IMG/VR virus record: IMGVR_UViG_3300049491_000674
Reading direction: 5' to 3' (one strand)
DNA from: an uncultured virus (IMG/VR IMGVR_UViG_3300049491_000674)
Taxonomy: Duplodnaviria > Heunggongvirae > Uroviricota > Caudoviricetes
Length of the DNA stretch: 64,000 nucleotides
Shown here: piece by piece, positions 16,236 to 62,310 of the stretch
How the letters are laid out: each line of letters begins with the position of its first letter
Position numbering within the stretch: the first letter of the stretch is position 1
The notes under the pieces: generated by a model
The model's database searches: none
The model's input: only the letters and a program-made list of their open reading frames with translations
Told to the model about the DNA's origin: nothing
Made by a program: the position numbers and the translations under genes

Positions 16236-16237
16236 AG

Positions 16238-16327
16238 CGCCTCCGAGGGGACTCGAACCCCTGATGTGGGCCTTACGACCCAGCACGGTTTAGAGCCGTG
16301 TCCCTTCAACCATTCGGGCACGGAGGC
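16238..16327 (-). tRNA. tRNA with CUA anticodon (amber suppressor), long variable arm, G73 (Ser-like), no encoded CCA
   Basis: GCCTCCG/CGGAGGC acceptor; CACGG-CTCTAAA-CCGTG anticodon arm; AGGGG-TTCGAGT-CCCCT T arm. Confidence 0.9.
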
Positions 16328-40328: not shown

Positions 40329-42056
40329 ATGGCATCGAAGGACCTGTTCTCGTCGAAGAAGACCTCGGCTTTTGCTCCGGCAACGGACACGAAAAATGCC
40401 GCAGGTGGTGTGGCCTACAAGCGAGCGGATGAGGAAGCCCTCGCACAGTTCGCGGTCACGGGCTGCTTCAACAACACATTCTACGCTTCGTCTGCTGACC
40501 AGCTCACGAAGGTGAAGGAGCTGTTGGGCAACGTGTCCCCGGCAACGATCGGTACGTTGGCTGTGTACTCGCGTACGCACGGGCACATGAAGGACATGCC
40601 CACGTTCTTCGTTGGGTACCTTTCGGGGCTTCTGGCCAAGGCGGCTGAAGCGGAAGAGGTGGCTCGGAAGGTAAAGAGCCCAGACATTCAGGTGAAGGCT
40701 GACGCGGTTCGTGCGTTGTCTGAGATTCTGTGGGACGTTTTTCCACGGGTCATCGACAACGGCAAGATGCTGCGGAATTATGTCCAGATGATCCGATCGG
40801 GAGAGACTGGACGAAAGTCCTTTGGCTCAAGCCCGAAGCGGCTTGTTAGAGCGTGGTTCGATACACGTGACGACACGAGCATCTTCTTCAATTCGACAGG
40901 CAACAGCCCGTCGATGGCGGACGTGATCAAGCTTGTTCGTCCGGTGCCCATGACCGAGGAACGGGCAGCCCTTTACGGCTGGCTCCTGGGTAAGGAGAAG
41001 GGTAAGTTTGGCGACAAGGAGTTCGTTGTTGCTGATGCTGCCCCGGTCTGCATCAAGGAGTACGAGGCGTTTCGAAAGAACCCGAAGATCGGGGAGATAC
41101 CGAAGGCTCCTTACGAGATGATCGAAGGACTCGATCTGTCTGTGTCCCAGTGGAAGGAGTTGGCTGTTCGATCCACCTGGAACCAGATCCGCCAGCACCT
41201 CAACACCTTTCTTCGGAAGGGCGTCTTCACGAGTTCGATGGGTCAGTGGGACTCTGCTGTGATCAAGGCGATCGTGTCCAAGATCACGGACGAGGCCGAG
41301 ATCAAGAAGGCTAAGGCGATGCCCTACCAGCTCATGGTTGCCTACAAGCACATGGGCCCGGAGATGCCGGTGGAGATCACCAACGCGATCCAGGATGCGA
41401 TGGAAATCGCAGTGGCCAACGTTCCTGTCATTGATGGGATCGTGGCTGTTTTCCCAGACGCGTCGGGGTCGATGCACTCTCCTGTTACGGGTCAGCGAAT
41501 CAACCCAAAGACCAAGAAGCTGGAGACTCATACCAGCAAGGTGCAGTGCGTCGATGTGGCTGCCCTGGTTGCTGCTTGCGTTCTTCGTCGTAACCCGAAG
41601 GCTCTGATCATCCCATTCGTGGAGAAGGCTCTCACGGACGTGATCTTGAATCCAAAGGACTCGATCATGACCAACGCGATGCGTCTTTCGTCCCTCCCTT
41701 GTGGTGGGACGAACTGTTCGGCGCCCATGGCAGCACTGAACAGCCGAGGGGTGGCTGCCGACCTCGTGTGGTACATCTCCGACTACGAGTCGTGGGTGGA
41801 CACCCCTAACCACAACCACTTCGGAGGCTCTTCGACGGAAACTCTTCGTCAGTGGGAGATCCTCAAAGGTCGTAACTCGAAGGCCAAGCTCGTCTGCATG
41901 GACATTACCCCCAACACGACCACGCAGGCCAAGACCCGTGATGGGATCATCAACGTTGGCGGATTCTCCGACAGCGTCTTCACGGTCGTCCAGAAGTTCT
42001 GGGAAGGTGACGGCGGGATGACCTGGATGGAGCACATCCAGCAGATGGTAGGATGA
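40329..42056 (+). CDS. Ro60 / TROVE-domain RNA-binding protein
   Basis: NAAGGVAY, GCFNNTFY, GHMKDMP, VIDNGKMLRN, vWA DASGSM, GGTNCS, SDYESW, VGGFSD. Confidence 0.92.
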   Translation: MASKDLFSSKKTSAFAPATDTKNAAGGVAYKRADEEALAQFAVTGCFNNTFYASSADQLTKVKELLGNVSPATIGTLAVYSRTHGHMKDMPTFFVGYLSGLLAKAAEAEEVARKVKSPDIQVKADAVRALSEILWDVFPRVIDNGKMLRNYVQMIRSGETGRKSFGSSPKRLVRAWFDTRDDTSIFFNSTGNSPSMADVIKLVRPVPMTEERAALYGWLLGKEKGKFGDKEFVVADAAPVCIKEYEAFRKNPKIGEIPKAPYEMIEGLDLSVSQWKELAVRSTWNQIRQHLNTFLRKGVFTSSMGQWDSAVIKAIVSKITDEAEIKKAKAMPYQLMVAYKHMGPEMPVEITNAIQDAMEIAVANVPVIDGIVAVFPDASGSMHSPVTGQRINPKTKKLETHTSKVQCVDVAALVAACVLRRNPKALIIPFVEKALTDVILNPKDSIMTNAMRLSSLPCGGTNCSAPMAALNSRGVAADLVWYISDYESWVDTPNHNHFGGSSTETLRQWEILKGRNSKAKLVCMDITPNTTTQAKTRDGIINVGGFSDSVFTVVQKFWEGDGGMTWMEHIQQMVG

Positions 42057-42060
42057 TCGA

Positions 42061-42094
42061 AAAAGTGAGGGTGCCTTCAAGTATCCTCACTTTT
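42061..42094 (+). terminator. terminator-like hairpin after TROVE gene
   Basis: AAAAGTGAGGGTGC..GTATCCTCACTTTT. Confidence 0.55.
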
Positions 42095-42188
42095 GCTATT
42101 GACTACGCTTATCTTTCCCTTACAACATGAAGTACACCCAGAGAGATGTTCTCGCTGGGTAATCTCAACCAGGGCATCGACCCAAACA

Positions 42189-42349
42189 AGACTCAACCAC
42201 CCCCTTTGCTGTCCCTCCAGACAGATGCCGGTTTGGTCTACATTTAAACAACGCCATGATTTGGTATTAAAGCCTAAGCCCTTCGGGGAACCCCCAGACT
42301 CAACCACCCCCTTTGCTGTCCCTCCAGACAGATGCCGGTTTGGTCTACA
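42189..42349 (+). repeat. 54-bp direct repeat (42189-42242; 42296-42349)
   Basis: Exact copies. Confidence 0.9.
42220..42320 (+). ncRNA. Y-RNA-like candidate
   Basis: GACAG/CTGTC and GGTTTGGTCT/AGACTCAACC terminal pairing; 101 nt; adjacent to Ro60. Confidence 0.55.
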
Positions 42350-42424
42350 CTACTGAAATAGTACACCCCTGATTACAACCCCTAGCCCACGATGTTGTGT
42401 TCATTCCCGTGGCACAAGACTTTA

Positions 42425-54017: not shown

Positions 54018-54374
54018 ATGAAGAACAAAAAGCCTGTCGTGCCTCCGCCCGCCCCTGTCAGGAAGCAACCGGAGGCTGCCCCCAAGAAGATGGTTGTGCC
54101 GGTCGGTGGGGTTCGTCCTTTCCCGTCGCACGCCCAACAGACCCTCAAGGAAGCTCTCGGGCAGGTGGACCAAGCTCAGCGGGAGTTGGGAGCCAAGTCC
54201 ATGCTGGCACTTCAGGCTGACACGCAGATGCGGCAAGCAGCTCAAGCTCTGGAGTTGAAGCAAGAAGCCCTCATGGCTCTGTCCAAGAAGATCTTGAACG
54301 AGATGGGAGAGGATACGGTATCCCAGAGCTGGAACGTGGATTTCTCGACGTTCGAAGCTAAACGCGTCTTCTGA
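54018..54374 (+). CDS. hypothetical coiled-coil protein
   Basis: ORF. Confidence 0.7.
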   Translation: MKNKKPVVPPPAPVRKQPEAAPKKMVVPVGGVRPFPSHAQQTLKEALGQVDQAQRELGAKSMLALQADTQMRQAAQALELKQEALMALSKKILNEMGEDTVSQSWNVDFSTFEAKRVF

Positions 54375-54418
54375 GGCTTTTCTTTTTGATCCTGTACGAG
54401 GATCAACCTAGTAGAGGG

Positions 54419-54556
54419 GTTCGAAGGTTGAACAGGGGTCCTGGTTGGGGCTCTCTGAGGCAACCCGACCCTTTAGTAGCTGTTTGCCCAGCAAAACAGG
54501 GTCGGTGCAGAGAGTCGGGAAGTTTGAGTCTTCCCGCCCCTGTTCAGCCTTCGAAC
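54419..54556 (+). ncRNA. structured small RNA with 20-bp terminal stem and T-loop-like hairpin
   Basis: Class I promoter 54383-54412 with no ATG after it; nested stems. Confidence 0.7.
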
Positions 54557-54557
54557 G

Positions 54558-55160
54558 TAACTTGAACTGCTTAAACGCCTGCGAGCCCACAGCTCCGCGG
54601 GCGTTGCTGTTTTGGTAGTGCCCCGTTTGGGTGTATAGTTGGTTAACGGTCCCTTCCATCGTGTGGAATCGGATCTGGCCGATCCTCATCCCCGCGTAGA
54701 CCCGGATGGGGTGCTGCACGATGACTTCCAGCGTGTATTGTCCGTCGAACCCAGGATCCCCGTAGCCTGCCGTAGCGTGAATCTGAACGAAAAGACGGCC
54801 AATCGACGACTTCCCGTCCACGATGGGAACGTACTTGGTAGTCGAGATACGTTCGACCGTATGCATCAAGTACCCGATCCCAGGCTTCAAGACCCAACCG
54901 CGTTGTGGGTCGATCTTGGTTTTGAGTACCCTTGGTTCCTCACGTACGTCCAAAACTCTGGAGGTGGGTACGATGAATGTTCCGTCGTCGGGTTCAGAAA
55001 TTGCGTGATTGGTTGTCCAAGGAACGTAGACGCCTACCTCCTCTCCGAGAGTCAGGTCGTAGCTCGTAGGATTGAGCTGTTTCTCGCTCCAAGGGTCAAT
55101 TTTGATGTCTCCCGCTTCGATGGCAGCAGCGATTGAAGCGTCGGTCAAGATTCCAGGCAT
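54558..55160 (-). CDS. dcd: dCTP deaminase (TTA end)
   Basis: QLNPTSYDLTLG, DGKSSIGRL, TAGYGDPGFDGQYTLE, GMRIGQ. Confidence 0.9.
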
Positions 55161-61484: not shown

Positions 61485-62285
61485 ATGGCAAACCCGCTCA
61501 CCATTCCAAAGAACGATCACGAGATGGCCCGCGACTGGTCAAAGTTCATCGGCCAGACCCTTCGGGGCCGGAATCGTATCTCATTCAACTTCGAGGACGT
61601 CTTCCAGGACATCCTCTTGAAGCTCGTGACCTCAAAGGTCGTCGAGAAGTTTTGGGCGGGGGTGTCTGAACGCTCGCACCCTTTGACGGTGACGGCGGAT
61701 GAGGCCGCAAAAATGCTCGGCATTTCGTTGGGGGACTTCATCTCCTTTCAGATCGAGTCGAGCGATTCGTTGACTCCTGTCAACGGGAAGGGTCAACCGA
61801 TCCCAGATGGGTTGGGGTATTCGAGCCCTGCGGCCTTGTACCTCTTCGCGGATGTGATCGTCCTTGGGGCCTCGGTTGTTTTTGCTGGGCAAGGGGTTCA
61901 GCAGCTTCCGCCTCCGAAGGACCCCACGGTCTCCCAGTTTCGAGCGTACCTGTTGGTGGCGATCCACAACCACGTCTCGAACGTCTGTCGTCGTCACGCT
62001 CGTAAGTTCAACAAGGAGCACGCTCCTGATCACTTCGCTTGTTTTCGTACCTCTGAGGGCACGATCGAGTTCGAAGGTTCTCTTGTCGACGAGGGAGCAG
62101 CGGCGGACATAGAGAATGGGGCTGAGGCTGGCCTCATGCTGCGACGCACCCCTGGCATCATGACCAAGAAGTCGAAAGACGAGAAAACTGTCTTCGACCT
62201 CATTCACGAAGGTTACTCCATCGCAGAAGCAGCACGGGCGTGTCGTCTGACCCGTCATGAGCTGCGAGTGCTGACCCGCGAGTTA
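61485..62285 (+). CDS. sigma-70/ECF-like factor with insertion (TTA end)
   Basis: FEDVFQDILLKL, FRAYLLVAIHNHVSNVCRR, EGYSIAEAARAC; class I promoter. Confidence 0.55.
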
Positions 62286-62310
62286 TCCTTCGATAGCAGT
62301 TAGGTTGGTG

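Follow-up and report, generated by a model that had tools for sequence, protein, structure and literature searches.

The locus and its neighbours

The window (the whole stretch of 64,000 nucleotides, or 64 kb, that was analysed) belongs to the genome of a large phage, in which short genes are densely packed, and its nearest viral relatives are records of 250-440 kb. Its genes include those for an endolysin, a homing endonuclease, a dCTP deaminase, Ro60, RlaP and a tRNA nucleotidyltransferase, and it also carries a 2H-type RNA ligase family protein and two tRNAs. The stretch is contained in full in a freshwater-sediment run, which may be its source; runs X2, X12 and X13 overlap only parts of it, and a syntenic relative in an activated-sludge run differs at 74 letters, with 6 gaps, over 1138 nt. 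No RNA run was among the 13 runs listed, which has no bearing on expression. At 54419-54556 on the plus strand, fold, homologues and covariation point to a structured noncoding RNA of 138 nt. That this is a real RNA can be held with high confidence, and it is probably a mimic of the tRNA elbow. Directly upstream lies a gene for a 118-aa protein (54018-54374, plus strand) with no Pfam match. The dCTP deaminase gene (54408-55160, minus strand; PF22769, E 3e-36) is convergent with the RNA and, as the initial annotation overlooked, its frame continues for about 50 extra codons antisense across the whole RNA to a stop inside a promoter box. In most of 21 viral relatives the deaminase stops a few codons past its QFK end, in the related loci L135 and L137 it stops just before the 3' end of the RNA, and in X3 and X13 indels would truncate it at differing places within the 3' stem. 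The antisense extension is thus not a conserved protein.

The predicted promoter of the RNA (54386-54412, plus strand) consists of TTGATC (54386-54391) and CTAGT (54408-54412) with a T-run in front, and is not a sigma-70 consensus. Motifs of the form TTGAYM-N14/18-YTAGT number 17 in the window, while 30 mononucleotide shuffles gave 0.93 on average and 3 at most. In 12 of the 17 copies an ATG begins exactly at the seventh base past the TAGT box, which leaves no space for a ribosome binding site and suggests leaderless starts there. At the copy considered here this seventh base, G54419, opens the terminal stem, and from this geometry we infer that the RNA starts at G54419. The initial annotation had described a promoter followed by no ATG, and this description holds, both in the excess of the motif and in the 40 nt past the inferred start, which are free of ATG. 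In the X3 relative (one contig) both promoter boxes are identical and the spacer has four changes, and a motif of the TTGATC/CTAGT type also stands 5' of the copy in L135/L136, 14 nt further upstream than in the window. A gene at 61485-62303 (plus strand), itself preceded by a TTGATC/CTAGT promoter, may encode a sigma-factor-like protein, a lead taken from language-model features (Atlas feature score 0.91); the protein has no Pfam or PHROG match. In the related phage G004 (L215-L222) a variant promoter, TTGATC-N17-TTAG, was observed with an ATG at the same distance.

Fold of the RNA

The region 54410-54565 folds at -84.3 kcal/mol (z -7.31), and none of 200 shuffled sequences was equally stable. 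The element was also the most stable of 5554 sampled 138-nt segments on both strands, a ranking tilted towards it because the 23-nt step of the scan fell exactly on 54419. The stems and sequences listed in the initial annotation were all found in place. The terminal stem (54419-54438 with 54537-54556) has 20 bp, with a single U.G pair (54428-54547) and pair probabilities of 0.95-1.0. Its 5' strand (54419-54438) contains TGAA at 54429-54432 and its 3' strand (54537-54556) contains TTCA at 54543-54546. This TTCA lies at the position of the NCCA of a tRNA, yet it is paired and 10 more pairs follow it. The stem encloses a D-like loop (54439-54449) with the sequence TGGTT, its GG at 54443-54444, on a stem of 2-4 bp. 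The long central arm (54450-54515), at the position of the anticodon arm, is built of a 6-7 bp helix, an internal loop, an 8 bp helix, a loop E-type motif and an apical hairpin. The motif is an internal loop of AGTA opposite AAA (54475-54496; AGUA/GAA in relatives) capped by a 4-bp hairpin with a TTTGCC loop. It went unremarked in the initial annotation, together with its hairpin, and is presumably of the kind called loop E or bulged-G. The T-arm (54517-54535) carries a 7-nt T-loop, TTTGAGT. The T-loop-like hairpin proposed earlier is therefore present with the loop described, and its stem reads better as 6 bp (GGGAAG/CTTCCC) than as 7, a reading also favoured by a junction change in the X3 relative (one contig). 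Loop E, G18/G19, U54-A58 and G3.U70 are used here in their textbook sense. The orientation of the promoter, the T-loop and the motif places the RNA on the plus strand, and folding energy prefers the plus strand in seven of nine sequences (the window copy and eight relatives).

Relatives in other phages

A first covariance model, for which the window copy was the only input, was used to search 80 metagenome loci fetched through the dCTP deaminase. It matched seven of them: L135 (= L136; 106 bits), L137 (99.5 bits), L138 (85.4 bits), L191 (48.6 bits) and L139 (= L140; 36.3 bits). A second model matched L139 (46.6 bits), L155 (36.3 bits) and G010 (35.7 bits), and a third added G008 (37.2 bits), each built without the sequence that it found; E-values from these models are rough. 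The copy in G014 is the same copy as L191. In total there are eight distinct relatives, all in large phages and with 48-75% identity to the window copy, four of them strong (L135, L137, L138, L191) and four weaker (L139, L155, G010, G008). A copy was found in three of 21 deaminase-bearing viral records, and in two of the eight among these that are rated at least 90% complete. The route to all of these relatives led through neighbouring dCTP deaminase genes, which biases the known range. The one-sequence model matched none of 50 records, three of which were matched by later models, so that a blank from these models carries little weight. There was no match in cultured phage records, in Myxococcus phage Mx1 or in G027, the nearest viral relative by shared genes (53% complete).

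Searches by pattern added little. Degenerate patterns hit at least 116 viral loci and 23 genome loci, and among the matches listed only the G014 copy scored with the model. A descriptor search returned the window, L137 and G008 copies with four unrelated matches, against one match in shuffled DNA. An exact match to the T-arm in viral contigs (L001), five exact matches to the apical motif and 12 viral loci with the promoter and GNCGAA pattern were all unrelated, the first two sets being chance matches. An RNA with a T-arm and loop E motif in the tRNA arrays of G004 (16.9 bits) and G027 (below 8 bits), two related phages, was not counted as a member. This tRNA-shaped RNA (L244:1570-1740, minus strand, in G004; L225:17900-18060, minus strand, in G027) has a T-arm and a common 18-nt hairpin at the anticodon position, with the AGTA/GAA motif in G027, and its 5' GCGGATGC resembles the Y RNA motif.

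The surroundings of the copies differ. Gene order around the L135 copy is as in the window, with identities of 52% for the upstream protein, 67% for the deaminase and 75% for the RNA. In L137 and L138, and also in L135, a second conserved structured region of about 260 nt stands between the promoter and the copy. The copies in L139 and L191 directly follow a stop codon, and in L191 the next gene begins 8 nt past the copy. Beyond the deaminase used for selection, no common partner gene stood out among the window (64 kb), G008, G010 and G014.

Conservation and covariation

The pairing was examined in an alignment of the four closest sequences made by MAFFT without regard to structure. In this alignment 98.4% of cells are paired and 10 of 47 pairs have changed on both sides; none of 500 shuffles matches this pairing, and slid controls pair at 40-55%, a comparison in which the structure tested is favoured over the slides as it was derived from the same sequences. 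When L191 is included in a model-fitted alignment, 30 of 52 pairs have changed on both sides. These counts are based on four to five related sequences, and kinship alone can beat shuffles. They are nevertheless the compensatory changes in homologues by which the initial annotation had proposed that the RNA be checked, and together with the invariant bases of the T-loop they bear out its description of a tRNA-elbow-like noncoding RNA behind a promoter. Both-sided change is seen at five of 20 pairs of the terminal stem in the four close sequences (14 of 21 with L191), at three of six pairs of the basal helix of the central arm in the four close sequences, and at four of six pairs of the T-arm in the alignment with L191. 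Positions 11-13 of the terminal stem (U-A, G-C, A-U) are constant in all five sequences. Among the differences listed for the X3 relative (one contig) up to position 54536 are two one-sided changes that keep pairs and one loop change; G54467A breaks a pair.

The most constant part is the T-loop, which reads G-(T..[AG]A.T)-C, that is U54, purine 57, A58 and U60 closed by G-C, in all nine sequences; the 6-bp T-stem is present in eight. Positions 55-56 of the loop are variable (UU, UC, GU, CC), which indicates that the canonical contacts with G18/G19 are not strictly kept, and in L137 position 55 and the first G of the D-loop change together (one event). The D-like hairpin is found in the window, L135, L137 and L138, while L191, L139 and L385 (the G008 copy) have only an unpaired linker bearing GG, so that the D-like stem is weak or missing in three to four of nine. 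The long stem is present in eight of nine, the G010 copy being without it. The AGTA...[GA]AA loop is found in seven of nine and is missing from L139 and L155, which may be only analogous since they are without the arm as defined; the apical loop is invariant in the four close sequences only. A register of T-stem, 7 nt and YTCA, the last paired with TGAR, is kept in all of the five closest sequences, is off by one in L139 and is missing in L155, L241 and L385.

Comparison with known RNA families

The window copy and five loci of relatives were compared with Rfam 15 at relaxed thresholds without a family match. Neither RF02553 nor any other Y RNA model matched, and the identical search finds YrlA-like RNAs in L242; models of 6S RNA and SRP RNA gave no match up to E 10 in 601 nt. 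ARAGORN at default settings found no tRNA or tmRNA at the element and relaxed settings gave noise. The comparison with YrlA, tmRNA, SRP and 6S RNA proposed in the initial annotation thus leaves the RNA outside every catalogued family. It departs from the tRNA cloverleaf, with its 7-nt anticodon loop, 7/5 branch and CCA or free 3' end, in having a T-stem of 6 bp and its YTCA buried in a helix, without an anticodon loop of tRNA type. It resembles the allo-tRNAs, which have 8/4 or 9/3 acceptor branches (PMC5389517, in the part available), in being a non-canonical tRNA-shaped RNA of bacteria and phages, but differs from those described there in that its T-stem of 6 bp sits on a closed helix of 20 bp and it has neither anticodon loop nor CCA. 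No description of the RNA was found in the literature searched. In a catalogue of 10,006 candidate viral RNAs (PMC10690425) there was no match in seven supplementary files, and files 1 and 2 of that source may contain the family. Mimicry of tRNA is in itself a known kind, and as judged by sequence and predicted fold the present layout (D-like loop, long arm, T-arm) fails the tests for every named family.

Bacterial tRNA mimics of known role are, to our knowledge, few: tmRNA, Y RNAs and allo-tRNAs. The present RNA would add a family of different layout that is supported by covariation, is independent of Ro60 and has been found in large uncultured phages only. As it is short, self-contained and easily synthesised, its fold, processing and protein partner are open to direct test.

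Possible functions

The conserved four-part fold, the invariant T-loop bases, the lack of a free CCA end and the predicted promoter start on the stem together form the basis of the explanation that we tentatively prefer, namely that this is a trans-acting, uncharged mimic of the tRNA elbow that serves as a protein decoy. Where it is linked to a promoter (window, L135) the RNA would be made on its own, and in L137, L138, L139 and L191 it would be cut from a longer transcript at the stem of about 20 bp. Production as its own transcript or by release from a longer one would fit a trans-acting RNA, with a role for the stem in excision or protection. The T-loop may dock on the D-like loop at its GG, forming an elbow that caps a long, blunt helix resistant to nucleases, and a host protein that reads the elbow could then bind the RNA and be drawn off real tRNA, with the loop E arm offering a second binding surface. 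The most likely binder would be a tRNA-cutting or tRNA-sensing enzyme of defence or quality control. The RNA-repair and tRNA kit of the phage (Ro60, RlaP, tRNA nucleotidyltransferase, 2H-type RNA ligase and two tRNAs) was counted for this reading. Host defences that cut tRNA are known, such as Septu acting on tRNA-Tyr (PMC13096335, in the part available). If the decoy reading is true, it would represent RNA counter-defence against tRNA-cutting immunity. A bolder form of the idea, which must be regarded as speculative and unlikely, is an undescribed class of phage RNA decoy that combines a tRNA elbow and a loop E (sarcin-ricin-like) arm with a locked acceptor helix and so neutralises host defence ribonucleases directed against tRNA or the ribosome; in some phages it would form a cassette with another RNA lying upstream. 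This would be an RNA-based counter-defence against translation-targeting immunity.

The strongest rival, although we consider it unlikely, is that the RNA is the precursor of a matured tRNA-like adaptor. By analogy with YrlA of M. smegmatis, RNase III would cut the stem, RNase P and exonucleases would trim the product to an acceptor branch of 6+6 bp, and the enzyme of the phage would add CCA. The YTCA register and the phage's own CCA-adding enzyme are consistent with such a pathway, as is the G-C, A-U, A-U run in the stem, which matches the make-up of the proximal box of RNase III substrates as given in the available part of PMC1540722. A full RNase III site would also need distal-box pairs within an 11-bp helix and a fitting orientation. 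CCA is encoded in none of the nine sequences, the register is missing in L155, L241 and L385, and there is no anticodon loop of the tRNA type.

It is rather improbable that the element acts in cis, as a processing site, a protector of 3' ends or a transcription barrier for its neighbours, for example the convergent dCTP deaminase gene. Positions close to gene ends would suit such a role: a convergent gene ends 3-4 nt from the 3' end of the RNA in L135, L137 and L138, and the element lies 3-7 nt past a co-directional stop codon in L191 and L139. The orientation to the neighbour varies between loci, however, no U-tract follows the element in any of the nine (first 12 nt), and the T-loop and loop E arm would be superfluous. 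In the window the promoter's predicted start is the first base of the element, and a stand-alone promoter of this kind leaves nothing to regulate in cis.

Ro60 and Y RNAs

The Ro60 (TROVE) gene of the window (40332-42056, plus strand; PF25045, E 6e-15; phrog_850) lies 12.4 kb upstream of the RNA, for which the initial annotation had suggested a role as a second Ro60 partner. On a reading of this kind, which we find improbable, the RNA would be a Y RNA of the Yrn1 layout that binds the Ro60 of the phage or the host. According to the available part of Chen et al. 2014 (PMC4201824), Yrn1 of D. radiodurans has the canonical arm order and a 6-nt loop. The present RNA follows the order modelled there, with a long stem joining the 5' and 3' ends, a D-like loop, a stem-loop with a 6-nt apical loop at the anticodon position and a T-arm, and like Yrn1 it has no variable arm (PMC4201824). 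A T-arm with a tRNA-like T-loop, a Y RNA feature, is present in all nine sequences, Ro60 is encoded in the same genome, and an inner GUUGAA in the window, L135 and L137 is one base off GNCGAA. Against this, the central arm of about 66 nt with its loop E-type motif corresponds in Yrn1 to a 5-bp stem (PMC4201824, in the part available), and the RNA is without the bulged helix and the Ro60-binding motif and matches no Y RNA family in Rfam. YrlA, which is defined in the same source as available (PMC4201824) by a 5' GNCGAAN0-1G motif, by T before D and, in nearly all cases, by a position within 4 kb of Ro60, is likewise a tRNA elbow mimic of similar size that occurs in phages (RF02553; PMC4201824). 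Its consensus is permuted (V-T-acceptor-D), unlike the order D-like, long arm, T found here, and the RNA is without the GNCGAAUGC...CUAC 5' motif.

The near-match to GNCGAA on which the earlier suggestion drew does exist, with one mismatch, but is at the level of chance. Within the first 22 nt GNCGAAN0-1G is exact in none of the nine (mismatches 1, 2, 2, 2, 2, 3, 1, 3 and 2), a one-mismatch match to GNCGAA occurs by chance in 16% of 22-nt stretches (1865 of 11634), and the 5' TTCGAAGG of the window copy is not conserved among relatives. G008 and G010, both rated 100% complete and with distant copies, have no Ro60 gene; the positive control in D. radiodurans was found. A Ro60 of the host's own may still be present. 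None of 70 Ro60-bearing records (69 of 80 viral loci and Mx1; 17 rated at least 90% complete; mostly distant phages) had the RNA at E<0.001 among the candidates scored, and 61 Ro60 loci with flanks of up to 10 kb gave no match. The 138-nt RNA is thus probably not a partner of the phage Ro60.

Likelier partners on sequence grounds are the Y-type units beside Ro60 itself, to which the analysis points in this phage group more widely. One such unit (42220-42320, plus strand) lies directly behind the gene and carries a 54-nt exact repeat; at both its 5' and its 3' end it resembles the Rfam YrlA consensus. A second Y-type 5' motif begins at about 42327. The units behind the Ro60 of the window are below Rfam detection. 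A Y-type motif was present within 800 nt of Ro60 in 11 of 79 loci downstream and 10 of 79 upstream, compared with three in control stretches. Behind Ro60, at 42057-42420 (plus strand), a terminator-like hairpin is followed by tandem Y-type units made from the 54-nt exact repeat, and a sigma-70-like promoter (TTGACT-17-TACAAC) lies at about 42104-42132. The predicted fold of 42220-42320 is a long stem that includes a bulged helix. Y-type motifs of similar kind flank Ro60 in L055, L056, L091, L096, L125 and others. In G053 two tandem YrlA-like RNAs (L242:285-569, minus strand; 57.8 and 31.8 bits, below the Rfam gathering score) belong to a tRNA array that is separated from the Ro60 gene of that phage by about 20 kb.

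tmRNA and mobile elements

A further alternative, which is distinctly improbable, is a reduced tmRNA, a tRNA-like domain without the message that would titrate SmpB and so dampen host trans-translation. The RNA shares with the tRNA-like domain of tmRNA an acceptor-like helix, a weak and (nearly) stemless D-loop with GG, a long interrupted arm, a short linker before the T-arm, and the T-arm itself (four phage tmRNAs compared). It is, however, without tag reading frame, pseudoknots or a CCA end, its T-stem has 6 bp, and the TTCGAC of the D-loop and the GGAC of the linker, both present in all four of the phages' own tmRNAs, are absent. G3.U70, an identity element, is also absent, default ARAGORN finds nothing, and G008 and G010 already have full tmRNAs. 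The initial annotation had also raised a MITE-like DNA repeat, here one that would be bounded by terminal inverted repeats of 20 bp and have entered the dCTP deaminase gene at its end, and this is largely refuted: the 20-bp inverted ends and the lack of the usual deaminase stop would fit it, but the element is single-copy in the 64-kb window (at most one per record elsewhere), a target duplication was not found in the flanks, the ends differ in sequence while pairing is kept, including G.U, and the syntenic position is retained in L135.

Other structured regions

The region of about 260 nt noted above in L135 (1165-1415), L137 (923-1190) and L138 (6622-6885), on the minus strand in each, is 87-89% identical between them, has no Rfam match and is not in the window. 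A 4-codon frame, M-R-I-R-stop (AGG, ATA, CGA), opens it, and close to its end there is a hairpin that resembles a T-loop. Structured unannotated stretches also lie just upstream of the copies in G008 (L385:1640-1790, minus strand), with a 17-bp stem around about 50 nt, and in G010 (L241:1610-1715, minus strand). Within the window, positions 1-600 contain very stable GC-rich folds, second only to the element described here; a near-repeat of 32 nt lies at 1 and 87. A tRNA with a CUA anticodon and a long variable arm, resembling an amber suppressor, lies at 16237-16327 (minus strand); three promoter-linked genes of the window end in TAG, and a CUA tRNA was also seen near the Ro60 gene of L055.
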